Shown piece after piece: positions 1 through 62,258 of a DNA stretch of 64,000 nucleotides. A program made the position numbers and the translations under genes. How positions within the stretch are numbered: the stretch's first letter is position 1; every line of letters starts with the position of its first letter. Where the stretch lies: the NCBI GenBank assembly GCA_928721565.1, contig OV788638.1, positions 204,348-268,347 of the forward strand. Direction: 5' to 3'. Below the pieces are notes generated by a model. It saw only the letters and a program-made list of their open reading frames with translations. It ran no database searches and was not told the DNA's origin. This stretch comes from an uncultured Clostridia bacterium. GTDB taxonomy: Bacteria; Bacillota; Clostridia; TANB77; CAG-508.

Positions 1-437
1 TCACCAATATCTGCAAATTCTATAATTTCTTGCTCACGATTTCTTATTTCTTCATTAGTTAATCCCATGACCTGACCATGTTGATAAATATTCTCATAAC
101 CTGTTAATTCTTGATTAAATGCTGTTCCTAATTCTAGTAATGAACTTATTTTGCCTTTTGCTTCAATTGTTCCAGAAGTTGGAGTAACTACTCCTGTAAT
201 CATTTTTAATAATGTTGATTTTCCAGCCCCATTTTTTCCTAATACTCCTAACACTTCTCCTTTTTTTACTTCTAAATTAAAATCATGCATGGCTTCAAAA
301 ATTCCATGTCTTTCGACTGTAGGAAATAGTGTTTCTATTATTCTATCTTTCTTTCTAGCAAACATTTTATATCCTTTTGAAAGTCCATCTATTTTCAATA
401 CAACTTCTGATGAAGTTTTGTTTTTTTTATTGTTCAT
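1..437 (-). CDS. ABC transporter ATP-binding protein (teichoic acid/polysaccharide export, TagH/KpsT-like). Only the N-terminal part is in the window; the gene continues beyond position 1.
   Basis: Reverse translation from the ATG at 437 gives [26 protein letters not shown]...[23 protein letters not shown], a Walker A motif. The +strand ORF 151..543 is its antisense shadow. Confidence 0.8.
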
Positions 438-446
438 CTTTCTATT

Positions 447-1442
447 TTATCTCCTTTTCAGTATTTTTAATACTCTATATCTAATATTAAACAATATTTT
501 TCCGATGAATGGCATATTCATTATAACAAAATTTTCCAGATAATATATTGGTGTTTCAGTTTTATATAATTTATGGAATACATTCCACCCCATAAAATTA
601 AAGTTTTTCTTATTTTTTATATTTCTAAAATAATCTAATGCCTTTTCATTTTGTTCTTGTAATTCTTTTGGAAATTTTTCTTTATTATTTACATATGTTC
701 CAAAAACTCCCAGTTTCACATTTATAAACAATTCTCTTACTTGTTCTAATTTTCTAAATCCATGTGATATTTTATCTGTTCCAACTTGGTTATTTCCATG
801 TTGTCTATATTTTATATATTTTTCTGGCATATATGCTAATTTTCCATTTAAAGCTACTATAAGTCCTATCCAATGATCATGTATTAAATACTTAGAATCT
901 GTTGGTATTGGTACTATCTTTTCAATAAATTCTTTTTTTGATAAAACTGTACATCCAGTCACACAATTATATAAATAGTTTACTTTATAACTATCTATGT
1001 ACTTGTTTATCTTTCTGTTTAGCATCATAAAATCTCCAAATGACGGATATATTGTCTTTAAATTTTGATCAACAACTTCTAAATCTCCAAACACCAAATC
1101 TGCATTTTGTTTTGTTAAAGTTTCAATTGATTTTTCTACCTTTATTGGTAGCCATACATCATCTTGATCAGCTAACATATAATAATTACTTTTTACTTTT
1201 TTCAAAAGAAATTCTATTCCTTTTACTACGCCGATATTTTCTTTTTGTAAATATAATTCTATTCTTTCGTCTTTCTTTCTATATTCTTCTAATATTTTAG
1301 GTGTTGAATCTTTTGAACAATCATCTGAAATTATTAATCTTATATTTTTATATGTTTGATTTAATATACTATCCAACTGCTCTTTTAAATATTTTTCTCC
1401 ATTATATGTTGGGAGTAATATATCTATAGTATCATTATTCAT
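447..1442 (-). CDS. Family-2 glycosyltransferase
   Basis: N-terminal DILLPTYNGEKYLKEQLDSILNQTYKNIRLIISDDCSKDST is a GT-A (DxD) fold. It is paralogous to 5622..6599. Confidence 0.75.
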   Translation of the reverse strand: MNNDTIDILLPTYNGEKYLKEQLDSILNQTYKNIRLIISDDCSKDSTPKILEEYRKKDERIELYLQKENIGVVKGIEFLLKKVKSNYYMLADQDDVWLPIKVEKSIETLTKQNADLVFGDLEVVDQNLKTIYPSFGDFMMLNRKINKYIDSYKVNYLYNCVTGCTVLSKKEFIEKIVPIPTDSKYLIHDHWIGLIVALNGKLAYMPEKYIKYRQHGNNQVGTDKISHGFRKLEQVRELFINVKLGVFGTYVNNKEKFPKELQEQNEKALDYFRNIKNKKNFNFMGWNVFHKLYKTETPIYYLENFVIMNMPFIGKILFNIRYRVLKILKRR

Positions 1443-1456
1443 TTTATTTCCTCACT

Positions 1457-2251
1457 TTATAGCACATCTGCAAAATCTTTTTTGCTCTTTTTGAATATAT
1501 AATTTCCCCATACAAATATGATTATAGTTAAACTCCAAAATATAAGTGTATAAATTCCATGTCCACTTATCACTATGTTACTTGTTCCCATAAAACAGTC
1601 TCTAAATCCTGTTACTAGATATGTAAATGGTAAGCATTTCATAGCTCTTGATATCGTATGATGTTCTGCTATCATGCTTAAATCCCATACTACTGGTGTA
1701 AGCCACATTCCTATTTGCATAATAATTCCTAATAAATTTGAAAAGTCTGGTACTAGTGTTGCTACAGCTGATGTGAATCTTGTAATAGCAATTAAAAAAA
1801 TATATACTGAAAAAATCATATATACAAGTTGTAAAATATTAGGTATAAACTTAAAAATAGCACATACTAGTGTTGCAATCACCATCAAAAACACTGCAAC
1901 AAATGCATTTGCAAATAATGATATTATAGGTATTATATCAACTGGGAAAACCACTTTTTTTACCAAATAGCTATATCCCCTTATTGAATTACTTGCACCT
2001 ATTATTCCATCATTTATTGTCATCCACATTGCCATTCCTGGCATAAACCATACAACATATGGAGCACCTTCTGGGCCTGTTTGTTTAAATATGTATTGGA
2101 ATACTATTACATACATCATCATAAATACAAATGGTTGTAAAAAACCCCATACACTTCCTAAGCTTGTATTGGCAAATCTATTTTTAAAATCATTTTTTCC
2201 TAATTGTAATACTAATCTTTTATTTTTCCATAAAGTTTTTATAAATTCCAT
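1457..2251 (-). CDS. ABC-2 type polysaccharide/teichoic-acid export permease (TagG/Wzm-like)
   Basis: Six-TM ABC-2 permease signature with LGSVWGFLQPFVFMMMYVIVF. It lies immediately upstream of the GT2 gene and the ATPase. Confidence 0.75.
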   Translation of the reverse strand: MEFIKTLWKNKRLVLQLGKNDFKNRFANTSLGSVWGFLQPFVFMMMYVIVFQYIFKQTGPEGAPYVVWFMPGMAMWMTINDGIIGASNSIRGYSYLVKKVVFPVDIIPIISLFANAFVAVFLMVIATLVCAIFKFIPNILQLVYMIFSVYIFLIAITRFTSAVATLVPDFSNLLGIIMQIGMWLTPVVWDLSMIAEHHTISRAMKCLPFTYLVTGFRDCFMGTSNIVISGHGIYTLIFWSLTIIIFVWGNYIFKKSKKDFADVL

Positions 2252-2382
2252 ATTTCCTCCATTGTTTTTTATATTTTCTCTTTTATTACATTTTCTCTTG
2301 TTATTCTACTATAAGAGCTATTTAAAGTCAATAATTTAACCTTAAATAGCTCTAAACTTATATATTTTTTTATTCTAAACAT

Positions 2383-3156
2383 TTAAATTTTTTCACATAT
2401 CAAGTTGATTACACTTTCCATAATTTCTTTATTGTCTAATTGATTATTTATATTTTCTGTAATGCAAATTAGCATTTTCTCTCCATCTTCAAAATATTCA
2501 TATGTTTGATATTCATCCATGTCCTCAAATGAATAATCCTGTATCTCTCCTGTAATTTCATCAATTATATAACATTTGCTTGATATTGTTATACTATATA
2601 TTTTTTTACCATTTATAACATTTTCAATTTTCTTATCATACTCATTCTGATTGCTTTTATCTTCTATTTTCAAATATCCATTTTTATCTATACTATATTT
2701 AGATAATGCTACACTCGATAAATATTTCAAAAATTCTGTTCTATCTTTTTCATAAATCCATATTCCTTTTTCTATTGGTTGATTGTTGTTTAAAAGATTA
2801 TCTAATTCTTCTTTTTCTGGTTTTGAATCTTTTATCATTCCAGCAAATGCGACCTTATATTTTATACTACTTTTTATTGTTGCAACTTTTGCATTATTAT
2901 CTCCATATTGTATTTCGTACAAGTCACTTTCACCTTGTTTTCCTGTTTCTTTTATTAATTCTTCTAACTGTTCTTGAGATATTTCTTCTTTTTCATTATT
3001 ATCTTCTTTTATCTCTTCCTTTATCTCTTCTTTTGCCTCTTCATCTTTTAAGATTATATTTTTATTCGACTTTTTCTTCACAAAAATCAAACTCAAAATC
3101 ATTCCTAAAAGCAATATAATTATTAATATTATTAATATCATTTTTTTATATTTCAT
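2383..3156 (-). CDS. Hypothetical protein with an N-terminal membrane anchor and a Glu/Lys-rich linker
   Basis: A TM segment MILIILIIILLLGMILSLIF is followed by an E/K-rich low-complexity stretch and a C-terminal globular region. No recognisable family. Confidence 0.4.
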   Translation of the reverse strand: MKYKKMILIILIIILLLGMILSLIFVKKKSNKNIILKDEEAKEEIKEEIKEDNNEKEEISQEQLEELIKETGKQGESDLYEIQYGDNNAKVATIKSSIKYKVAFAGMIKDSKPEKEELDNLLNNNQPIEKGIWIYEKDRTEFLKYLSSVALSKYSIDKNGYLKIEDKSNQNEYDKKIENVINGKKIYSITISSKCYIIDEITGEIQDYSFEDMDEYQTYEYFEDGEKMLICITENINNQLDNKEIMESVINLICEKI

Positions 3157-3203
3157 ATTTTATAATAAAAGGGTTACAAAATTATAACCCTTTGTTCCTT
3201 TCA

Positions 3204-5612
3204 TTAATTCATATTTCTAAGCATATCTAATGTTGCATTAATATATCTATTTGCAAAATTTTTATTCACAACTGACTGATGTCCTGTAACTCCTTGTTTT
3301 GGTAATTCTATTAATGCTGTTTTAGCTGCTCTATTTGTTGAACCTAAATAAGTTCTTCCCCATGCTATCATATATCCTGTTCCATATCTCCCAACAGACT
3401 TTTTATTATTTTCTGGAAATTGCCTATCATAATATGAACAAATTTCTTCATTGCCTATTAATTGTTGTGTCCATCCATGCAAATCAACTAGAAGTGTTTG
3501 TCCATTTTGTGATTTATTAGCCAACATAAAATTCCTTAACGTTTGTGCTTCATATGCTTGAAATCCAGCTGTTCCATTATAATTTCGGCTAGATGTAAAT
3601 CTTTGATATGAACTTCCTATTTGCCAACATCTATTCATGTCAATTCCTTTATTGTTAGGTGCTTGACTATATAGCGTTGTTCTTCCAGGTCCATTATTAG
3701 TCCATCCATTTGTTAATCCATCTTGATTAATACCTGGGAATATGTATATTGTCCATTTATCTGCCAAATCGTAATCTTTATCATTTAATAATTTATTATA
3801 AAATTGATTTGCAATATCAACTAATTCATATCCATCTCGACTCCATATATCCTCATACCCATGAATTGCAAATGTTGCAAAAAATACATTAGGTCCATTT
3901 CCATATTTTAAATAATTCAAATTATTTCCACCTTGCCCAGAAACCCTTAAACCTGTTTGTCCATATGTTCCTGATTGGTATTCTATTTTAGGTCTAATAT
4001 TTATATTAACTATTTTTTCTAATATCAAATTATTCTGTTTATCAAAGGCCTGAACCTTTAATACTCCTTTTGTGTTTGCTAGTTCGCTTAAATTTAATAT
4101 TGCTTCGAATCCAGGTAATGGATTATATTCTTTTCCTCCATAACCTTTTATTATTTCAAGTACATCATTTCTTGATGTTCTTGTTATCCCAGAATCAATT
4201 TTTTCATCATTAAATAATATCCTAATATTTACATTTTCAATATTAGTCATTAACCAGCCTTTAACCTTTACTTTTTCTGCTCCAACTTTGTTAGCTGGTT
4301 CGTCTATATACATAGTCACTCTGTCATGTGCAATTTTAGGTACTATTTTTATTTCTATTGCTTCTAGTCTTAGTCCTTTTTCTTCAGTTCCTGCAGTTTC
4401 TCCATCATTTGCCCAACCTTGCCATCCAACATCTTGTACTAGTACTCTATATTCAATGCTATATTCCTCTGTGTTTTCGATTTCTATCTTTATAGCCTCT
4501 ATTCTTTTGCTCTGCGATACCGTTCCTGCAATCTCTCCATTGTATTTCCAATCTTGCCAGCCTATATCTTGTACATGTACCCTATATTTTATTCTCATAT
4601 TATCAGTTGCATTAATTAAGTTTAATTTTATTGCTTCTATTCTTAGCAATCTTCCTTCTGTTCCTGCTTTTTCGCCATCTTTTTTCAAATTTTGCCACCC
4701 AATATCTTGCACATGTGCTGAATATGTTACATGAAGTTCTGTATCATAAAATATGTGTGATTCTAAAGTTCCTATTACTTTTCCTTTAGAATTTATTGTG
4801 TCAATTTTTATTATATGTTGACCTGCACTTAAATCTCTTGTATCAATTTCAAAACTATATTGTGGCATTAGATTCTGTTTAACAGTTCCATATCCTACTA
4901 CTCCTTTAATAACATCAGGTCTTTCTGCATATTTTATTCTATCTTCATCTAATTTTATTTGGTCAAAATAAGCTACTATCTTTGTATCTGAAACATCAGC
5001 CATTTTCCAACCAACTACATTTATTTTATCATTTTTATAATACACTGTTCCATCTTGTGCTTGATCCAAGTTCATTAAAACCTTAGCTCTTTTTTCTACT
5101 ATCTTTATTTCTATCGCTTCTAATCTTTTTAATTGTCCTTCTGTTCCTGCTGTCTCTCCATCATATTTCCAATCTTGCCATCCTATATCTTGGATATGTA
5201 CTCTATACATTATTGAATATTCTTCTGTTTCTTCTAATTCTATTTTTATCGCTTCTAATCTTTTAGATTGTCCTTCTGTTCCTGCTAATTCTCCATCATA
5301 TTTCCAGCCTTGCCATCCTATATCTTGTACATGTGTTTTATACTTTATTTTTATACCATCTGGCAAATTAGTTGAATTGATTTTTATTGCTTCTAATCTT
5401 TTAGATTGTCCTTCCGTTCCTGCCAATTCTCCATCATTTTTCCAACCTTGCCATCCGACATCTTGTACATGACAACTATATGTAACTCTAATATTTCCTT
5501 CCTCATACTCATTTCCTTGCACTTTCATCATTATAGCTATTTGCAATACAATTAAAAGCATTAATGCTTTTAACACTTTATACCCCTTATTATTTTTCAC
5601 TAAATATACCAC
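3204..5612 (-). CDS. Secreted ChW-repeat (clostridial hydrophobic W) protein with a C-terminal M14-like zinc carboxypeptidase / gamma-D-Glu-DAP peptidase domain
   Basis: A signal peptide is followed by at least 9 copies of a ~50-aa unit, Y..HVQDIGWQ.WK.DGE.AGT.G.SKRLEAIKI (the ChW consensus). The C-terminus has HGYE ... DLHGW, which resembles the M14 HxxE...H zinc ligands. Confidence 0.65.
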   Translation of the reverse strand: MVYLVKNNKGYKVLKALMLLIVLQIAIMMKVQGNEYEEGNIRVTYSCHVQDVGWQGWKNDGELAGTEGQSKRLEAIKINSTNLPDGIKIKYKTHVQDIGWQGWKYDGELAGTEGQSKRLEAIKIELEETEEYSIMYRVHIQDIGWQDWKYDGETAGTEGQLKRLEAIEIKIVEKRAKVLMNLDQAQDGTVYYKNDKINVVGWKMADVSDTKIVAYFDQIKLDEDRIKYAERPDVIKGVVGYGTVKQNLMPQYSFEIDTRDLSAGQHIIKIDTINSKGKVIGTLESHIFYDTELHVTYSAHVQDIGWQNLKKDGEKAGTEGRLLRIEAIKLNLINATDNMRIKYRVHVQDIGWQDWKYNGEIAGTVSQSKRIEAIKIEIENTEEYSIEYRVLVQDVGWQGWANDGETAGTEEKGLRLEAIEIKIVPKIAHDRVTMYIDEPANKVGAEKVKVKGWLMTNIENVNIRILFNDEKIDSGITRTSRNDVLEIIKGYGGKEYNPLPGFEAILNLSELANTKGVLKVQAFDKQNNLILEKIVNINIRPKIEYQSGTYGQTGLRVSGQGGNNLNYLKYGNGPNVFFATFAIHGYEDIWSRDGYELVDIANQFYNKLLNDKDYDLADKWTIYIFPGINQDGLTNGWTNNGPGRTTLYSQAPNNKGIDMNRCWQIGSSYQRFTSSRNYNGTAGFQAYEAQTLRNFMLANKSQNGQTLLVDLHGWTQQLIGNEEICSYYDRQFPENNKKSVGRYGTGYMIAWGRTYLGSTNRAAKTALIELPKQGVTGHQSVVNKNFANRYINATLDMLRNMN

Positions 5613-5621
5613 CTTATTTAA

Positions 5622-6599
5622 TTATTTTAAAAACACTAAATACGCTAAAACCGGAAAATGAAACAACACAATCTCTCTAACCATCTTTTTACCTTGATTC
5701 TTTCCAGCTAAAATTTTAAAAAACTCACTAAAATTCCAATTAATTTTAGTACTCTTCAAAACATCTGAATAATACCTTTCCGCTTCTTCCATAAACATCT
5801 GATCATCTCTGATAGCCGCATATTCCTTGCACATTTTAATACCACCAAGATAAGCTCTATTAATAGCATCTTTTCTGTATTCTAAAAAAGAGTTATAACT
5901 ATTGCCATGATCATTTTTCCATCTAGCAAGATTCTGATTTAAACTTCTTCCACCAAAAACATTAGTTCCATGTAATCTATAATCGAACAGAGCATCTTCA
6001 ATATAGCATATACCTTTTCCTTCATTCGCAAGAAATGCGGCAAGCCAATCATGTGCAATAACATCTTTTTTAAATGGAATCATTTTTTCTTTAACAGTTT
6101 TGGTAATAATTTGCGAACATCCTATTCCAACACATCTTGAAATAGCCAATTTGCTATTTTCTTTTACTAATGGCACATTTTTGTATTTAAAGTAATCATC
6201 TTGAATAACAACTCCATCTTCGTCAATTTGTCTACAGTTGCAATAGACCATATCAACATTTTCTTCTTTTAATTTAGATAAGCTTTTTTCAACTTTATCT
6301 TTATGCCATATATCATCATGATCTGAAAACATTATATAATCTGCTGTTGATTGTTGTAGTAAAAATTCAAAATTTTTATTATACCCTAAGTTTTTAGGTT
6401 GAATATACAATTCTATCCTTTTATCTTGCATTTTATATTGTTTCAATATTTTCGCAATTTGTGGATTAGTAGAATTGTCATCACTTATGTATATTTTAAT
6501 ATTTTTATATGTTTGGTTTAATATACTTTCTATTTGCTTTTTTAAATATTTTTCATTGGTATTATATGTTGTAACTAAAATATCAACTAATTCTTCCAT
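5622..6599 (-). CDS. Family-2 glycosyltransferase, paralog of 447..1442
   Basis: DILVTTYNTNEKYLKKQIESILNQTYKNIKIYISDDNSTNP; the N-terminal 50 residues align with the other GT2. Confidence 0.75.
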   Translation of the reverse strand: MEELVDILVTTYNTNEKYLKKQIESILNQTYKNIKIYISDDNSTNPQIAKILKQYKMQDKRIELYIQPKNLGYNKNFEFLLQQSTADYIMFSDHDDIWHKDKVEKSLSKLKEENVDMVYCNCRQIDEDGVVIQDDYFKYKNVPLVKENSKLAISRCVGIGCSQIITKTVKEKMIPFKKDVIAHDWLAAFLANEGKGICYIEDALFDYRLHGTNVFGGRSLNQNLARWKNDHGNSYNSFLEYRKDAINRAYLGGIKMCKEYAAIRDDQMFMEEAERYYSDVLKSTKINWNFSEFFKILAGKNQGKKMVREIVLFHFPVLAYLVFLK

Positions 6600-6602
6600 A
6601 TT

Positions 6603-7310
6603 TTATCCCTTTTCTAATTTTTCATTAAAATATAATTTTGTTATTAACCTTAATTCATTTAGTGATTCATCTTTTAAATTAAATGAAAACAATTTTTTAG
6701 GTGGTGCCATAACTATATATTTTATGGCATTCATTGTGCTCTCACTCATTTGCAGGCAACTTTTGTCTTGCCTTCCACATGCAGAACATTTAAATCCATT
6801 ATCTCTTAAGCTAAAGTATATCAATTCTTCTTTTTGCTTACAATTTACACATTCTGTTATCCTTGGTGTAAAACCTAAAAAACATAATATTTTTAATTTA
6901 AATATACTTGTTATTAGTTCTGGATTTTTGTCTGTTTCTGATAATGTATATAATGTGTTTAAAAATAATTGTAAAATTTTATAGCAGTTTTCATTTTCAT
7001 CTGTCACATCTCTAATTATTTTTGTCATTCCTACTGCGTAATTTAGCTTGTCCAAATCTGTTCTTAAATTGTAAAATACTTCTATTGTTTCACAGGAATT
7101 TATGTTATATGTATTTGCTCCTTTATACATTAAATATTCTCCAAAACACAAGAATTGTGTTCCTGCAAGTAAGGCGCTTCTTTGTCTTCTGGCGCCTTTT
7201 GCAACACATGATATTTTACCTAATCCTGGTGTTAACATTGTTAGCATTTTGTCATAATCACCTAAATTATTTTCAGAAATTATTATACCACTCATTTTTA
7301 TTGTTCCCAT
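6603..7310 (-). CDS. recO: DNA repair protein RecO
   Basis: An OB-fold N-terminus (GIIISENNLGDYDKMLTMLTPGLGKISCVAKGARR) is followed by a C4 zinc finger CVNC...CSAC. The gene sits directly downstream of era. Confidence 0.8.
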   Translation of the reverse strand: MGTIKMSGIIISENNLGDYDKMLTMLTPGLGKISCVAKGARRQRSALLAGTQFLCFGEYLMYKGANTYNINSCETIEVFYNLRTDLDKLNYAVGMTKIIRDVTDENENCYKILQLFLNTLYTLSETDKNPELITSIFKLKILCFLGFTPRITECVNCKQKEELIYFSLRDNGFKCSACGRQDKSCLQMSESTMNAIKYIVMAPPKKLFSFNLKDESLNELRLITKLYFNEKLEKG

Positions 7311-7440
7311 TCTGTTCCTCCATTGGCTGTTTTATTTTTTTATCTATTTGTTCTTCTATATTTTGTATTTGTTTTAGTTCTAAAAATGTATTTACATCTC
7401 CTGTGTTTTTAAAGGTATTCCATGCAATTTTTTTAATCAT
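7273..7440 (-). CDS. yqzL: YqzL-family small protein (55 aa), absent from the ORF track
   Basis: Manual translation gives MIKKIAWNTFKNTGDVNTFLELKQIQNIEEQ..., matching the YqzL pattern (W..F..TG.I..YL..K.I). The conserved era-yqzL-recO synteny supports it. Its 3' end overlaps the recO start by about 38 nt. Confidence 0.5.
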   Translation of the reverse strand: MIKKIAWNTFKNTGDVNTFLELKQIQNIEEQIDKKIKQPMEEQNGNNKNEWYNNF

Positions 7441-7498
7441 AAGCTCACTTCCTCTAATTCTATCTTTCGCAATTCGTATACAAATTATGCATTTATCT

Positions 7499-8404
7499 CT
7501 ATTGTAATTTAAATTTTTTTACTATTGTTGAATCATCTTGCCAATCCTCTTTAACTTTTACCCATGTTTTTAAGTTTACTTTTGTTCCAAAATTTGCTTC
7601 CATATCTATTCTAGCTGATTGACCTATTCGTTTCAACATACTGCCATTCTTACCAATTATAATCCCCTTATGAGAATTTCTTAGACAATAAATTGTTGCT
7701 TCTATGTCATACATAGGTTCTCCATTTTGATTTTTTCTGTATTTCATTTTCTCAACTTCAACATATATTCCATGTGGTACTTCATCTTGTAAGAATGTAA
7801 GTGCCTTTTCTCTTATTGTTTCTTCTGCTAGTTGTCTTAATGTTTGATCTGTATACTCCTCTGTATCATAATATGCAGGACCTGGTTTTAGGTTCTTTTC
7901 AATTTCGTCTAAAATTATATTTCTATATTTTGTTTGTAAAGATGATATCGGTATTACAGCTTCAAAATTATATTCTTTTTGGTATATATCTATTAATTTT
8001 AGAAGTTTTTCTCTTTTTATTAAGTCTATTTTGTTTATTATTAGTATGGCTTTTTTATTTGATTCTTTTATTTTTTCAAGAATTCTCATGTCTCCTCTAC
8101 CAATTTCTTCACTTGTAGCTTCTATTACAAATAATATTAAATCTATTTCGTTTATAACTCCAAAAGAAGTTTCTACCATTGTTTCATTTAATTTTGTTTT
8201 TGGCTTATGAATTCCTGGTGTATCTATAAATATTATTTGTGAATTTTCTCTATTAACAATCCCTCTAATTGCTGTTCTTGTTGTTTGAACTTTGTTTGCT
8301 GTTGCTGCTACTTTCTCACCTACTAATAAATTTACTAATGTGGATTTCCCAACATTGGTTCTTCCAAGCATTGCAACAAAGCCTGATTTAAATTCTTTTT
8401 TCAT
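7499..8404 (-). CDS. era: GTPase Era
   Basis: G1 motif GRTNVGKST, followed by G3/G4 motifs and a C-terminal KH domain. Confidence 0.9.
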   Translation of the reverse strand: MKKEFKSGFVAMLGRTNVGKSTLVNLLVGEKVAATANKVQTTRTAIRGIVNRENSQIIFIDTPGIHKPKTKLNETMVETSFGVINEIDLILFVIEATSEEIGRGDMRILEKIKESNKKAILIINKIDLIKREKLLKLIDIYQKEYNFEAVIPISSLQTKYRNIILDEIEKNLKPGPAYYDTEEYTDQTLRQLAEETIREKALTFLQDEVPHGIYVEVEKMKYRKNQNGEPMYDIEATIYCLRNSHKGIIIGKNGSMLKRIGQSARIDMEANFGTKVNLKTWVKVKEDWQDDSTIVKKFKLQ

Positions 8405-8418
8405 TTTGCTTTCCTTTC

Positions 8419-10740
8419 TTAATTTTCAAGTTCCTCTTCTTTTACTGTGTATTCCAATACATTAATTGTTTTAATGATTAACTTTGATGCAATATCATTA
8501 TCATCTTCTAATCTTCCTACTCTAATTACCTTTTTACTATTAAGAGTTATATCTGTGTCTAAAATATTAACTAAAATTCTTGTATCTTTGTCCATTCCAA
8601 CAGGTAATGTCTTATTTTGGTTATCATAATAAACACAATTTGAAAAAGCTATTGCTTTTACTCCTTTTTCAAGGTTCATTTTATATAAATTAACTTTTCC
8701 ACTTTCTGTATCCATTAGTGCATTTTCTATTTCTTTTTCCGGATTTAAATTAAAGACATTGAGCTCATTTGTGTCTATATTTTCTTCTTCTTCAATCCAT
8801 TTATAAACTGCAACTTCTTGTGATAATTTGTTTTTACATATTGCACTTTCAATTATGTCTATTGCATTACTTAATGCTGCTTTATATTCTACTGTTTTCA
8901 TTGGTTTTGCCACTCTTAATATTGCATATTTATTTTTAGGGTGTTCTCTATGAGATTTATTAGCTAGTTTAGTTATTTTTCTAGTGTCTTCTGCTAATCC
9001 TCCAAATATATCTATAACATCTTCTTCTGTAATGTCTTTTTCATTCTGTAAATCTTTCTTTATTCTTCTCATCCATTTTTCTACTTCTTTTGGCTCTGTT
9101 GAATTTGTTTTTATTTTATTCATTATTTCAAGTTGGTTTGTTGTTGTTAGATATACACAGTCCAATTCTTCTTTTGAAAAAATTTGCCTCTGAATCTTGT
9201 CCATGTCTTCTCCAAATTCTTCCATATCTTCTTCATAATCGAATACTTTTGAATGAGGTTTTATATTTATTGGTTCTTCTTCTCCTTCATCTAAAGTTTG
9301 AACTTCATCCTTGTTACTATATTTCCAAAATTCAAATATACTTCTTTTATGACTATCTATCTCATTTATAAATGCTGTTGCATTTTCTATTTTTTTCACT
9401 AAATTTATATTTTTCAATTTTAGTGCATTAATATCCATCTTAGTATTTTTTAGATTATTCTCTTTTTCATTAGTTTCTTTTCCTTTTTGTATTAATTCTT
9501 CTAATGTATATTGTGCTTTAACTTTTTCCTTTATCTCTTCTTTAACAAGTTTTGTTTCCTCCTCTTCTTCTGTTTCTTGTTTTTTCTTTATTTTTGATTT
9601 TTTTCCACTATATTTAAAGAAATATTTTACTTTTCCAAAAAAAGTTTTTTTGCATTCTAGATATGTTGATATTTGTTTTTCTTTACTTAAATATTCTATA
9701 TCTAAATCTTGTGCTTGCCTTTTTAGTTTTAATAATTTTCCTTGTAATGAATTGTTTTGACTTATTGCATTTTTTTCTAAATCAAATAATTTTTGGTATT
9801 CTATATTTAGCCAATCACTTAATTCGTCATATTTCATCAGTTTATCATTATAATAAAATTCTAAACTCCCTTGTTTATCGATTCTTGTTTCGAATTGATA
9901 ATAATTAGATAGTTCTGATTGGATAATAAATAGTGCTTTTACTAATTTAAAAAATTTAGTTGCTTCTATTTTATTTGAAAGTTTTACCTTATATTCTGAT
10001 TTTATTTTTCCATATATTTCTGTTTCTCCTACAATTTGTAGACTGATTTTTCCGCTTTTATCATATACTTCATAAATTGATGGCCAGTCTTTGGTAAATA
10101 ACCACAAATAATTTTCTAGACTTTGTATTTCTGTTTTATTTAATAGTTCTCTACTATAGTCCACATTGCTAATTGGTACAAATATTTTTCCTGCTTTTTT
10201 CTTTTCTATTTGTTTTTTTAATACATAAAAGAAAGTTGAATAATCTTTATCTTCTGTTGGAACAATCATAAAATATTGATCAGTTACTTCTGAATAATAT
10301 ATTTGCCATAGATAATTTCCTGAATATCTTACTTTAAATGGAATCTTTTTATTAATTAGTTGTTGTTCTTGTTCTACTTTTTCAATTTCTTCTATTTTTA
10401 CTTCATCTAACATGCGCAAAAAAGTAGCATACTTTTGTTGTTCATCTTCGTCTTTACTATTTGGTTCTAAGTAATCTGCTAGTGGACTTGATTTTGAATA
10501 TTTTTCTTTTATATCATCTAATCTATTAGTTGGTGATAATAGTATTTGTATCTCTTTTGGTGAAACAAATCTATATTGTCTATACTTTTTTTCATCAAAT
10601 CCAGAATTTGGCCTAAATTTTAAATCTTCAACTAATTTTAAAGTTTTAGGTATTTCATCCAAGTCTAGCCCTATAAATTCTAACTTTTTCTTTATCTCTT
10701 GAGTCTTATTTTTCTTTTCCAAAGTAGTTTCTCCTCTCAA
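8419..10740 (-). CDS. Large (773 aa) cytoplasmic hypothetical protein, K/E-rich, with coiled-coil segments
   Basis: A long ORF with no TM segment and no recognisable catalytic motif. It contains a central poly-K/E stretch (KKKQETEEEEETKLVKEEIKEK). Confidence 0.35.
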   Translation of the reverse strand: MRGETTLEKKNKTQEIKKKLEFIGLDLDEIPKTLKLVEDLKFRPNSGFDEKKYRQYRFVSPKEIQILLSPTNRLDDIKEKYSKSSPLADYLEPNSKDEDEQQKYATFLRMLDEVKIEEIEKVEQEQQLINKKIPFKVRYSGNYLWQIYYSEVTDQYFMIVPTEDKDYSTFFYVLKKQIEKKKAGKIFVPISNVDYSRELLNKTEIQSLENYLWLFTKDWPSIYEVYDKSGKISLQIVGETEIYGKIKSEYKVKLSNKIEATKFFKLVKALFIIQSELSNYYQFETRIDKQGSLEFYYNDKLMKYDELSDWLNIEYQKLFDLEKNAISQNNSLQGKLLKLKRQAQDLDIEYLSKEKQISTYLECKKTFFGKVKYFFKYSGKKSKIKKKQETEEEEETKLVKEEIKEKVKAQYTLEELIQKGKETNEKENNLKNTKMDINALKLKNINLVKKIENATAFINEIDSHKRSIFEFWKYSNKDEVQTLDEGEEEPINIKPHSKVFDYEEDMEEFGEDMDKIQRQIFSKEELDCVYLTTTNQLEIMNKIKTNSTEPKEVEKWMRRIKKDLQNEKDITEEDVIDIFGGLAEDTRKITKLANKSHREHPKNKYAILRVAKPMKTVEYKAALSNAIDIIESAICKNKLSQEVAVYKWIEEEENIDTNELNVFNLNPEKEIENALMDTESGKVNLYKMNLEKGVKAIAFSNCVYYDNQNKTLPVGMDKDTRILVNILDTDITLNSKKVIRVGRLEDDNDIASKLIIKTINVLEYTVKEEELEN

Positions 10741-10873
10741 TCCTTTTCTTCTTATATATTTTACTATGCAAACTTAAAAATATCAAGATTTTTATTGCTA
10801 TTTTTATTTTTTTTCGAATTGCTATTGACAAAATTTAAAATACCTATTATAATAAGTAAAGTTTCTAATTTAT

Positions 10874-10950
10874 GGCGAAGTAGCTCAGTTGGCTAGAGCA
10901 TCCGGTTCATACCCGGCAGGTCGTAGGTTCAAGTCCCACCTTCGCTACCA
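10874..10950 (+). tRNA. tRNA-Met (anticodon CAU; elongator Met or lysidine-Ile2 cannot be told apart)
   Basis: GGCGAAGTAGCTCAGTTGG...CCGGTTCATACCCGG...GGTTCAAGTCCCACCTTCGCTACCA is a full cloverleaf with an encoded CCA. Confidence 0.85.
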
Positions 10951-10952
10951 TA

Positions 10953-11000
10953 TATATATAACATATATAAAAAGAAGATAAAGAAATTATTCTTTATCTT
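10953..11000. terminator. Bidirectional hairpin terminator between tRNA-Met and the XRE gene
   Basis: A 12-bp stem aagaagataaag / ctttatcttctt is followed by ttttttg. Confidence 0.55.
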
Positions 11001-11011
11001 CTTTTTTGACT

Positions 11012-11547
11012 TTATTCGAACAGCAGACTACGTGCTATTTTCCGCCTTTTTTCCATCGGCAACCTTTTTAGAGGCTCTATTATTTTTTTCAGTTCTATTT
11101 CCTCCTCTTGCATTTTGATATAGTCTTGATCAAGTAAACTATCTAAACTAATCTCTAATGCCTCAGATATTCGTTTTAGAACAATTATATTTGGATTTAC
11201 TTCACCTTTTAGGCATCTTTCAGCAGTCCAAATTGGAATACCTGACAATTCAGAAAATTCCCTTGTTGTCATTTTTTTCTCTTTAAGCTCATATTTAATA
11301 TTATTACTTAATATTAGAGCCTCTTTGCTTACGGCCTTTTTGGGTGGCTTACCATAATATTTTTCTAGTGAAATCCCTAATATTGATTCCATTTTCCGGA
11401 TTCTCTCTATTGGTGGATTTCTTAGTGTTACATATTTCCAAAGAGATGTATTACTAATCTCAAGCTCTTTGGCCAACTCTTTTTGTGTCATTCCTTTCTC
11501 TTTTAGCACGCTTTTTAGTTCTTTTCCAAATTCAGTCAATTCTGTCA
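11012..11547 (-). CDS. XRE-family transcriptional regulator with two tandem HTH domains
   Basis: HTH1 is GMTQKELAKELEISNTSLWKYV and HTH2 is MTTREFSELSGIPIWTAERCL. The start is probably the MTELTEF codon at 11547, which has AGGAGG 7 nt upstream; the track gives 11587. Confidence 0.65.
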
Positions 11548-11624
11548 TTTGTTTTCCTCCTGTGTAATCTTCAACTATTTTTTGCAATTATATTATATCA
11601 CTTTTTTATGTTTATTTCAAGTTT

Positions 11625-12140
11625 TTAAAACCTTCTTTTATATCCTCTAGAATTGCAAGAATATGAAGTTGAATTAGTATTTATATTGTTGACCATATTT
11701 GCATCTGATAGTAAAGTATTTGCACCATTTCTGCCATTATTGCAACAACAATCAGGTTCTTCATCATAGCAATTTACAGAATTTCCACTTATACTAGCAA
11801 TAACTTCTCCATTACTATTAATTATTCTAAGATTATTGTTTGTATTCGTATTTTCATTATTATTATTTTCTTCATATGGATTATGACATCTTAGACAACT
11901 ATTATTTCTAAAAAAGCAACAGCTTTTAAATAGGCAATCTAAAAATGCTGATACAAATGCGACAATGCCTAATATTATTGCCAAAATAACTAGTGTTAAA
12001 TTAGATAAAATTATTGCAACTAATAATGCAATTGAAAAAAATATAAATCCTACTAACAGTGGACAACGTACTAATCTGTTAATAAATATTGCTAATACTA
12101 TTGTTACAAGTATTACAGCTAAAAAAATAAGTATATTCAT
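11625..12140 (-). CDS. Hypothetical membrane protein with 2-3 TM helices and a Cys/Asn-rich C-terminal tail
   Basis: The start is probably MNILIF at 12140, with a GGAAAGGA RBS. The tail contains CCFFRNNSCLRCHNPY...EEPDCCCNNGRNG. Confidence 0.4.
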   Translation of the reverse strand: MNILIFLAVILVTIVLAIFINRLVRCPLLVGFIFFSIALLVAIILSNLTLVILAIILGIVAFVSAFLDCLFKSCCFFRNNSCLRCHNPYEENNNNENTNTNNNLRIINSNGEVIASISGNSVNCYDEEPDCCCNNGRNGANTLLSDANMVNNINTNSTSYSCNSRGYKRRF

Positions 12141-36534: not shown

Positions 36535-36611
36535 ATGGCTCCTCTTGTTGGACTCGAACCAACGACCTATCGGTTAACAGCCGAGCGCTCTACCAACTGA
36601 GCTAAAGAGGA
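36535..36611 (-). tRNA. tRNA-Asn (GUU)
   Basis: Reverse complement is TCCTCTTTAGCTCAGTTGGTAGAGC...CGGCTGTTAACCG...GGTTCGAGTCCAACAAGAGGAGCCA. Confidence 0.85.
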
Positions 36612-36620
36612 ATATATAAA

Positions 36621-36736
36621 ACTAGCAACAACCTATTTTCCCAGCAGGGTAACCCACAAGTATCTTCGGCACATTGGAGCTTGACTTCTGTGTTCGGGAT
36701 GGGAACAGGTATTTCCTCCATGTAATCGTCACTAGA
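36621..36736 (-). rRNA. rrf: 5S ribosomal RNA
   Basis: Reverse complement matches the Firmicute 5S rRNA: ...CCTGTTCCCATCCCGAACACAGAAGTCAAGCTC... Confidence 0.85.
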
Positions 36737-36910
36737 AAATTAATATCTACTTAATACGAATGTAATTATACTATACCTTTTTTTAAATTGCAATACTTTA
36801 TTAATATTTTTTACATTTTTTTTTAAATTATACACTATATTTACATTCAATAAAAGCACACTCAAAAATACATAGATGAAATTATATTAGAATTCTTTTT
36901 TAAAATTATA

Positions 36911-39778
<2,868 letters not shown>

Positions 39779-40023
39779 GTTTTCTAAAATTAAATCCTAA
39801 TTTTTTCAACTAGTTGTCTAGTTTACCTTATTTCATCTATATATTTTTCAATGTGCTTTCTTTGTAATTATAAACTTCGTATTACTGTGTCAAACTTCGT
39901 CATAATTTTTTCGATATATACAAGTATTATCTCAAAAATTCTTCCTTGTTTTCCTTACATTACTTGTTTATAATTTCCAACAACAATTTTTATTATTGTT
40001 TTGTGCTGTTTTAATAACAGCTT

Positions 40024-40100
40024 TGGTGGGCTCAAATGGAATCGAACCATCGACCTCATGCTTATCAGGCATGCGCTCTAACCATCTGAGCTATGAGCCC
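40024..40100 (-). tRNA. tRNA-Ile (GAU) in the 16S-23S spacer
   Basis: Reverse complement is GGGCTCATAGCTCAGATGGTTAGAGCGCATGCCTGATAAGCATGAGGTCGATGGTTCGATTCCATTTGAGCCCACCA. Confidence 0.85.
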
Positions 40101-40211
40101 ATATTTTAGAGTCTTGTCAAATGTGTTTCATTTGTATGAGCCTACTCTATTTCAAATGTACTAATTAAAGTACATTGAAAAATAAACAATAGATCCTTTA
40201 AATCCTTTTCT

Positions 40212-41750
<1,539 letters not shown>

Positions 41751-53568: not shown

Positions 53569-53657
53569 GCAGATGTGGCGGAACTGGCAGACGCACAGGA
53601 CTTAAAATCCTGCGGTGGTTAAACACCGTGCCGGTTCGATTCCGGCCATCTGCACCA
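53569..53657 (+). tRNA. tRNA-Leu (UAA), with a long variable arm
   Basis: GCAGATGTGGCGGAACTGGCAGACGC...GGACTTAAAATCC...CCGGTTCGATTCCGGCCATCTGCACCA. Confidence 0.85.
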
Positions 53658-61987: not shown

Positions 61988-62063
61988 TGGTGCCTCGAAC
62001 GGGAATCGAACCAGTGACACAGGGATTTTCAGTCCCTTGCTCTACCAACTGAGCTATCGAGGC
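61988..62063 (-). tRNA. tRNA-Phe (GAA)
   Basis: Reverse complement is GCCTCGATAGCTCAGTTGGTAGAGCAAGGGACTGAAAATCCCTGTGTCACTGGTTCGATTCCCGTTCGAGGCACCA. Confidence 0.85.
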
Positions 62064-62097
62064 ATTTTATGCCTGATTTAATAATTATACAAAAAAA

Positions 62098-62174
62098 TGG
62101 CGACCTGGAACGGGCTCGAACCGTCGACCTCTAGCGTGACAGGCTAGCGTTCTAACCAACTGAACTACCAGGCC
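62098..62174 (-). tRNA. tRNA-Asp (GUC)
   Basis: Reverse complement is GGCCTGGTAGTTCAGTTGGTTAGAACGCTAGCCTGTCACGCTAGAGGTCGACGGTTCGAGCCCGTTCCAGGTCGCCA. Confidence 0.85.
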
Positions 62175-62182
62175 GTAAAACA

Positions 62183-62258
62183 TGGTGGTCGCTATAGGGC
62201 TCGAACCTATGACCCTCTGCTTGTAAGGCAGATGCTCTCCCAGCTGAGCTAAGCGACC
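62183..62258 (-). tRNA. tRNA-Val (UAC)
   Basis: Reverse complement is GGTCGCTTAGCTCAGCTGGGAGAGCATCTGCCTTACAAGCAGAGGGTCATAGGTTCGAGCCCTATAGCGACCACCA. Confidence 0.85.

Follow-up and report, generated by a model that had tools for sequence, protein, structure and literature searches.

The locus described here lies at one end of a stretch of 64,000 nucleotides from an uncultured Clostridia bacterium (contig OV788638.1, positions 204,348 to 268,347); the whole stretch is called the window below. The genes in question encode a peptidase with ChW repeats and a Peptidase_M14 domain (ChW-M14) and a membrane protein of 257 amino acids (aa), p257, and both are found among genes for a cell-wall polymer. 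All of the genes within positions 1-10740 are on the minus strand. They are transcribed in the order of the gene for a 773-aa protein, era, recO, GT2b, ChW-M14, p257, the permease gene, GT2a, and the ATPase gene (Table 1). The Pfam matches bore out the cell-wall glycopolymer locus with an ABC-2 exporter and family-2 glycosyltransferases (GT2s) that a preliminary description of this DNA had claimed. As stated there, one GT2 gene, GT2a, is inserted between the permease and ATPase genes. The two GT2s are also paralogous, with 38% identity over 230 aa (E=1e-43), and they are 4.2 kb apart, close to the 4 kb given before. The p257 gene, however, had been overlooked. The intergenic gaps from recO to the ATPase gene are 3, 9, 47, 131, 14, and 9 bp, the first of them between the recO stop and the GT2b start. 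Therefore, the block is packed like an operon, which possibly starts upstream at era/recO. The peptidase gene forms part of the polymer operon and is more than a mere neighbour of it.

Table 1. Features of the locus, listed in the direction of transcription, with positions in the window.
Feature	Position	Strand	Remarks
773-aa Lys/Glu-rich protein	8419-10740	-	No Pfam or PHROG family; directly upstream of era
Era	7499-8404	-	
RecO	6603-7310	-	
GT2b, family-2 glycosyltransferase, 325 aa	5622-6599	-	Pfam Glycos_transf_2, E=3e-29
ChW-M14 open reading frame, 802 aa	3204-5612	-	Pfam ChW, 2.6e-103; Peptidase_M14, 1.6e-12
ChW-M14: N-terminus with signal-peptide-like segment	5493-5612	-	KNNKGYKVLK-ALMLLIVLQIAIMM-KVQG, read by eye
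ChW-M14: ChW triad 1 (repeats 1-3, aa 41-180)	5073-5492	-	Pfam ChW; motif scan
ChW-M14: spacer domain 1 (aa 183-296)	4725-5066	-	No Pfam match; segmentation from motif scan
ChW-M14: ChW triad 2 (repeats 4-6, aa 297-436)	4305-4724	-	Pfam ChW; motif scan
ChW-M14: spacer domain 2 (aa 439-552)	3957-4298	-	Predicted beta-sandwich, no family
ChW-M14: M14 zinc carboxypeptidase domain (aa 553-802 of the 802-aa frame)	3207-3956	-	Pfam Peptidase_M14
Hairpin with 9-bp stem, then T-rich tract	3168-3193	-	Within the 47 bp that separate the peptidase gene from p257
p257, 257-aa membrane protein	2383-3156	-	Between the peptidase and permease genes
Perfect 11-bp inverted repeat, 18-nt loop	2343-2353 / 2314-2324	-	Arms AGAGCTATTTA / TAAATAGCTCT
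Wzm/TagG-type ABC-2 permease, 264 aa	1457-2251	-	Pfam ABC2_membrane, E=1.2e-11
GT2a, family-2 glycosyltransferase, 331 aa	447-1442	-	Pfam Glycos_transf_2, E=2e-29
Exporter ATPase (Wzt/TagH family), N-terminal 145 aa	3-437	-	Cut by the window start

The ChW-M14 protein was confirmed by Pfam as a fusion of ChW repeats with a peptidase. The repeats scored 337.9 bits against the gathering threshold of 22 (PF07538). Six ChW stretches were found by Pfam, and a motif scan agreed with six [VIL]Q[DN][VIL]GWQ motifs. The earlier count of at least nine repeats was therefore too high. The repeats are arranged as two triads, and each triad is followed by a spacer of about 114 aa, with spacer 1 placed behind triad 1 as spacer 2 is placed behind triad 2. 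Both spacers gave no Pfam match even at E<=10. Spacer 2 is predicted as an all-beta sandwich packed against the catalytic domain, and the model of this spacer with the M14 domain has a predicted local distance difference test score (pLDDT) of 94.5 and a predicted template modelling score of 0.89, with pLDDT near 90 in the spacer itself. The open reading frame (ORF) of 802 aa exists as described before, and its N-terminus looks by eye like that of a secreted protein. Its length, however, has to be corrected. The GTG at 5612 is inside the Shine-Dalgarno-like sequence AAGGTGG, and the GTG at 5600, 8 nt past this sequence, is thus probably the true start, which gives a protein of 798 aa. The 802-aa protein belongs to no NCBIfam family, and a PDB sequence search for a ChW structure found none. 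A PHROGs search gave only a marginal match through the ChW part (E=0.0025). An origin as a phage endolysin, or from a phage in general, was rejected, as it found no support from PHROGs or from the predicted viral structures of BFVD and the neighbours are era, recO, and wall-polymer genes.

The Peptidase_M14 match scored 48.1 bits against a cut-off of 21.6 (E=1.6e-12) and covers profile positions 45-190 of 286. In the alignment the zinc ligands are retained, with H584, E587, and H712 corresponding to H69, E72, and H196 of carboxypeptidase B (CPB). A loss of these ligands, which would have refuted the preliminary description, was thus not observed. The HxxE...H ligands are invariant in alignments of 14 and 8 sequences and nearly so in an alignment of 48 sequences. 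R644, N660, and R661 are the equivalents of Arg127, Asn144, and Arg145 in a HMMER alignment to CPB. E769, in LIELP where a predicted strand ends, and Y743, in GRYGTGY, were matched by eye to Glu270 and Tyr248 from motif and position. The catalytic and carboxylate-binding residues are invariant across the family. Considering the intact zinc ligands and catalytic residues, the M14 domain looks catalytically competent. Its predicted fold matches those of carboxypeptidases A, B, and T (CPA, CPB, and CPT), and it is only 15-19% identical to any solved structure. The inhibitory pro-domain of about 95 aa at the N-terminus of M14A-type enzymes is not present. Standalone M14 homologues are 276-307 aa long, and the smallest, of 276 aa, leaves no room for it. 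One M14 homologue, P0356 (414 aa, 38% identity), has a precomputed assignment of a Relaxase/mobilisation nuclease domain (PF03432), which may be a mis-call or reflect a mobile-element context.

The second protein, p257, begins with a membrane helix, which is followed by an acidic low-complexity linker and a conserved extracytoplasmic domain of about 185 aa. No Pfam, NCBIfam, or PHROG family was matched. The predicted model is confident, with pLDDT >95 for aa 70-255, and gave no match among the predicted viral structures of BFVD. A phage origin of p257 thus found no support from PHROGs or BFVD. A profile search over 1.84 billion cluster representatives returned just 268 members. Judged by these searches, p257 is a member of a previously undescribed orphan family.

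The p257 family is tied to the M14 peptidase. In searches with hidden Markov models (HMMs) over all fetched loci, numbered below with the prefix L, 25 of the 28 M14-bearing loci had a p257 homologue as the next gene downstream of M14. In the three exceptions, it is one gene off (L027), 4.4 kb off (L051), or not present within 6 kb (L050). The adjacency holds with standalone M14 proteins (L048, L052, and L053) as well as with M14 fused to RicinB (L046 and L054). The two are also joined in one polypeptide. All ten long proteins with a p257 domain consist of lectin repeats, then Peptidase_M14, and then a C-terminal p257 domain without the membrane helix and linker. Their lectin part is six to nine ChW repeats, RicinB, choline-binding repeats, or Big_7. 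These C-terminal fusions argue strongly for a physical cooperation of the two parts, and M14 and p257 would accordingly function jointly as a two-part peptidase.

A scan of species-representative genomes returned 43 loci. About 12 uncultured gut Clostridia, Clostridium sp. CAG:389 among them, share the order GT2b, ChW-M14, p257, Wzm, (GT2a), Wzt, and era-recO is also upstream in four of them. GT2b precedes the M14 gene in every relative whose contig extends far enough upstream. GT2a lies between the permease and ATPase genes in the window and six relatives and after the ATPase gene in four others; its varying place indicates a polymorphism of the clade. ChW-M14 (47-75% identity) and p257 (46-78%) are the fastest-diverging genes of the block, compared with 88-93% for Era. 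The gene of the 773-aa protein keeps its position upstream of era in related metagenome-assembled genomes (MAGs), with 61-81% identity.

Every divergent M14 homologue with a fetched context sits among glycopolymer genes. The neighbours are GT2 and a RicinB-GH25 muramidase in L046; ABC_tran, ABC-2, and GtrA in L049; GT2/GT4, ABC-2, Glucos_trans_II, PMT_2, and GtrA in L050; GT2, ABC_tran, ABC-2, and DUF6020 in L051; three GT2s and RmlD/A/C in L052; and DUF6020, several GT2s, and GtrA in L054. L053 has the gene order of the window but without ChW, with three GT2s, M14, p257, ABC-2, ABC_tran with Wzt_C, and GH25. A GT2 gene is near 23 of the 25 M14 loci and 7 of the 25 ChW-only loci (Fisher p=6e-6). 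The respective numbers for Wzm are 16 of 25 and 0 of 25 (Fisher p=8e-7), and one or the other is near 24 of the 25 M14 loci. These neighbours were counted with HMMs made from the proteins of the window, which favour the detection of close relatives, and the loci are not phylogenetically independent. Even so, the counts point clearly one way: it is the M14/p257 module and not ChW that goes with polymer loci, and the lectin module is interchangeable. GH25 muramidases are found a few genes from M14/p257 in L046 (2392-4647) and L053 (12149-14521), and the muramidase of L046 shares RicinB lectin repeats with the peptidase of the same locus.

The type of the polymer locus was judged from its exporter. 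The ATPase fragment matched the NCBIfam TagH and Wzt/RfbE models about equally (E 1e-25 to 5e-29; 3e-25 to 5e-29 for the TagH models). The closest relative is an uncultured Clostridia MAG (L009), whose genes are 75-98% identical to those of the window across the locus. Its ATPase, 98% identical over the 145 aa in the window, has 444 aa with ABC_tran and Wzt_C (PF14524, E=4e-31), and the ATPase of L053 likewise carries Wzt_C. The best PDB match of the L009 ATPase is Aquifex aeolicus Wzt with its carbohydrate-binding domain (1e-70), above TarH/TagH (1e-54 to 1e-58). TagB/D/F-type genes were found neither in positions 1-12000 of the window nor in the roughly 7 kb downstream of the L009 Wzt gene, where the last ORF was not scanned against Pfam. 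Taken together, the lack of TagB/D/F genes, the Wzt_C of the orthologue, and its best PDB match indicate a Wzm/Wzt-type locus, and a classical teichoic-acid locus was rejected on the same grounds. The best description is therefore a Wzm/Wzt-dependent locus for a wall polysaccharide. The exporter had been described as TagGH-type, which is valid at the superfamily level of an ABC-2 permease with an ATPase, but the ATPase is better termed Wzt-type. The permease gave a weak match to the galactan Wzm model of NCBIfam and is 57-94% identical in syntenic relatives. The closest NCBIfam model of GT2a is TuaG-like, far under its cut-off, and neither GT2a nor GT2b reached an NCBIfam equivalog cut-off. 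Downstream of the Wzt gene in L009 (16485-19020) are genes for a membrane-anchored protein of metallo-beta-lactamase fold (300 aa) and a 539-aa protein without a family, followed by a 704-aa GT2 fused to a WsaF-like domain of the rhamnosyltransferase type and an ORF running off the end of the locus. By eye, the N-terminus of the 539-aa protein resembles a methyltransferase, and the only matches of its C-terminal region, all non-significant, are coiled-coil proteins. Its identification as a WbdD-like terminator was not supported, as it had no significant Pfam or PDB match.

Some smaller features are located in the intergenic gaps. The hairpin in front of the p257 gene could be an attenuator or an mRNA-stability element, and no obvious Shine-Dalgarno sequence was seen for p257. 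The 11-bp inverted repeat begins 30 nt past the p257 stop, inside the 131-bp gap preceding the permease gene. The repeat overlaps the -35 box of a promoter-like sequence, TTGACT-17-TAGAAT, ahead of the permease gene (2303-2353 for the whole feature); promoter-like sites of that kind are no commoner than in shuffled sequence. Elsewhere in the window, a complete rRNA operon (16S, tRNA, 23S, 5S, and tRNA) is at 36539-41743 (minus strand), and further tRNA genes are at 10874-10947 and 53569-53654 (plus strand) and at 61991-62258 (minus strand).

On balance, we lean towards the following interpretation. The locus would be the upstream half of a Wzm/Wzt-type wall-polysaccharide operon with an embedded M14/p257 module, from an uncultured gut Clostridium of low GC content. 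GT2b, GT2a, and further glycosyltransferases encoded beyond the window edge would build the polymer on a lipid carrier. Wzm/Wzt would then export it, and the C-terminal domain found in the Wzt of the orthologue would be the carbohydrate-binding part. The first gene of the module is predicted to encode a Sec-secreted M14 zinc carboxypeptidase with a CPA-like active site and no pro-domain, which the two ChW triads would hold non-covalently in the wall. The second gene, p257, would encode a membrane-anchored extracytoplasmic protein that binds the peptidase and may serve as its private regulator, as a prodomain-like inhibitor, or as a foldase. The likeliest substrate is the C-terminal residue of peptidoglycan stem peptides. 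With such a substrate, the enzyme would tune wall maturation at the site of polysaccharide deposition. The ChW triads would most plausibly bind the polysaccharide of the same locus. A more general form of this proposal is put forward tentatively. M14 and p257 may be a dedicated accessory wall peptidase of Wzm/Wzt pathways in gut Clostridia, in which p257 is a new fold that acts in trans or in cis as a prodomain-like regulator or foldase, and swappable lectins, including ChW, read the polysaccharide of the same locus.

Several points weigh against this interpretation. The M14 domain appears nearest, by sequence and by fold, to the digestive-type carboxypeptidases A/B/T and not to the peptidoglycan enzymes MpaA or Csd4. 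The Wzt_C domain and all of the genes downstream are known from relatives only, as the window ends before them. The stretches examined showed no LytR-CpsA-Psr (LCP) ligase and no initiating transferase. The counted loci are not independent in phylogenetic terms; approximately 12 of them are orthologous copies from one clade. Most of the ChW-only loci are without nearby polymer genes, and M14 homologues without any lectin module (L048, L050, and L053) are also in polymer loci. The ligand of ChW is given as unknown in reviews (PMC5817068, PMC8051824).

The last three points bear on the strict anchoring model, in which ChW binds the polymer of the locus and the peptidase is merely one cargo. The preliminary description had suggested wall anchoring of this kind. 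Analogies for the model are CWB2 with PSII in C. difficile and SLH with the pyruvylated secondary cell wall polymer (SCWP) in B. anthracis. The embedding of the peptidase gene in the polymer operon fits this model. So does the arrangement of ChW in triads. CWB2 and SLH are likewise used in threes, and they bind secondary wall polymers whose loci adjoin the genes of the proteins (PMC4973711). The triplet of ChW repeats was proposed as the functional unit (Sullivan 2007, as cited in PMC5817068), and the two triads of the present protein show this organisation. Moreover, the targeting module on M14 is swapped among ChW, RicinB lectin, choline-binding repeats, Big_7, or none. This interchange with known glycan or teichoic-acid binders fits the binding of ChW to a wall glycopolymer. 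Genes for dTDP-rhamnose (RmlD/RmlA) are located 0.2-8 kb from ChW genes in 8 of the 43 loci (L017, L018, L021, L022, L024, L031, L035, and L037; L052 is listed as well). The eight loci span at least four lineages, among them uncultured Clostridia, Clostridium yunnanense, Clostridium sp. D53t1, and a Lachnospiraceae isolate. They offer a possible clue that ChW binds a rhamnose-containing polymer. A WsaF-like rhamnosyltransferase domain in the locus of the closest relative also fits the anchoring model. The module swaps, the triads, and the nearby dTDP-rhamnose genes point only indirectly to a wall-glycopolymer ligand, and anchoring to the polymer made by this locus is plausible. However, the linkage to polymer loci survives without the lectin module, so that anchoring cannot wholly explain it. 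The association is also weak for ChW proteins without M14, and ChW-M14 is the single ChW protein in the window. Anchoring is probably not the whole story, and its strict form is held as tentatively as the general proposal above.

Less probable is the second alternative, that the M14 domain acts elsewhere than on peptidoglycan. It might remove peptides or amino acids attached to the polymer itself or to a glycosylated surface protein. It might also be a nutritional carboxypeptidase displayed at the cell surface. The kinship with the general carboxypeptidases A/B/T is in its favour, and so is Ile749, which matches Ile255 of CPA in a by-eye alignment and would give a hydrophobic S1' pocket. The module is also linked to polysaccharide genes rather than to peptidoglycan genes. 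On the other side, targeting modules and neighbourhoods are common to M14 and the GH25 muramidases. A survey of wall-hydrolase domains also classed M14 with wall-binding domains among the cell-wall peptidases (PMC6403190). We therefore regard an action outside peptidoglycan as rather unlikely.

A chance neighbourhood, in which the peptidase/p257 pair is functionally unrelated to the polysaccharide genes, is improbable. Surface-protein genes and wall-polymer loci do often cluster for regulatory or historical reasons, and many of the counted loci are orthologous copies. Nevertheless, the association was met again in at least seven contexts that differ in arrangement, in lectin module, and in polymer gene set, and the pair lies inside the operon with gaps from single digits to 131 bp. 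Least credible is a toxin-immunity pair of a secreted bacteriolysin against competitors (ChW-M14) and a membrane-anchored immunity protein (p257): a wall-targeted hydrolase without a pro-domain, a small membrane-anchored protein of no recognised fold behind it, and the fastest divergence in the locus would suit it, but the C-terminal fusion of p257 to M14 in at least ten cluster representatives is hard to reconcile with immunity, the pair keeps a fixed place by era-recO in a conserved biosynthetic operon instead of lying in a variable island, an exopeptidase such as a carboxypeptidase makes a poor lytic weapon, and no secretion-system context was seen, PADLOC not having been searched.

The preferred interpretation, a wall-polysaccharide operon with an M14/p257 module, can be compared with known systems. 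The ABC-2 permease with its ATPase is shared with the Wzm/Wzt exporters of Aquifex aeolicus, E. coli O9a, and the mycobacterial galactan and with TagGH/TarGH. Wzt_C on the orthologous ATPase and the best PDB match to the Aquifex protein are further likenesses to Wzm/Wzt. Unlike those exporters, the present one belongs to a Gram-positive host and has a GT2 gene between the permease and ATPase genes. From the TagGH/TarGH locus it differs in that no TagB/D/F genes were seen. The Rgp and Epa clusters and the slg cluster of Geobacillus stearothermophilus, which encodes WsaF, are alike in making a polymer that depends on an ABC exporter and several GT2s. The WsaF-like domain in the 704-aa glycosyltransferase of the relative and the rml genes beside related M14 or ChW loci are in line with this. 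In contrast, there are no rml genes in the 64-kb window, and those clusters are not known to carry an embedded M14 gene with its partner. Among such systems, the S. mutans autolysin AtlA binds the rhamnan through its Bsp repeats (PMC9574508). The "AP locus" of C. difficile with CWB2 and PSII and the SLH/SCWP system of B. anthracis also have threefold wall-binding repeats and protein genes beside a polymer locus. Here, however, the repeat family is ChW, and one enzyme gene is inside the polymer operon, whereas a large cwp cluster lies beside it in those cases. PSII of C. difficile uses a MviN-type flippase, and the present locus has Wzm/Wzt.

The peptidase shares the HxxE...H zinc site, the M14 fold, and the equivalents of Arg127, Asn144, Arg145, Tyr248, and Glu270 with CPA, CPB, and CPT of M14A and with MpaA and Csd4. 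It differs from them in lacking a pro-domain, in its position behind ChW triads and predicted beta-sandwich spacers, and in the dedicated p257 domain, which is present in trans or at the C-terminus. A secreted enzyme with a private membrane-anchored helper encoded just downstream is familiar from the lipase LipA with the foldase Lif and from LytC of B. subtilis with its modifier LytB near the tag genes. The present pair resembles both in gene order and in an N-terminally anchored extracytoplasmic partner that is specific to one secreted hydrolase.

In its essentials the locus belongs to a familiar type, the wall-polysaccharide operon with an ABC exporter and a hydrolase directed to the wall. 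The combination of ChW with a hydrolase had been regarded as documented mainly in Clostridium acetobutylicum. The architecture is in fact widespread, and ChW with M14 is already tabulated in PMC6403190, which also remarks that wall-active M14 enzymes have seen little experimental work. If none of the readings above holds, what remains is an ordinary wall-polysaccharide operon with an autolysin-like gene. What is modestly novel is the two-part peptidase of M14 and p257 that recurs within the wall-polysaccharide loci of uncultured gut Clostridia. It adds a peptidase-partner system, with a partner of orphan fold, to the small set of wall-active M14 enzymes. The hosts are uncultured Clostridia of the human and animal gut, whose cell envelopes are essentially unstudied. 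The ligand of ChW has been unknown since 2001, though these repeats occur commonly in wall hydrolases of clostridia, enterococci, and phages. Here a ChW enzyme occurs together with a defined polymer pathway, and in relatives known glycan binders take the place of ChW, which opens the way to a concrete binding experiment. If the accessory role of M14/p257 is true, the locus would give a first handle on the ChW ligand, which may be a rhamnose-containing polymer.

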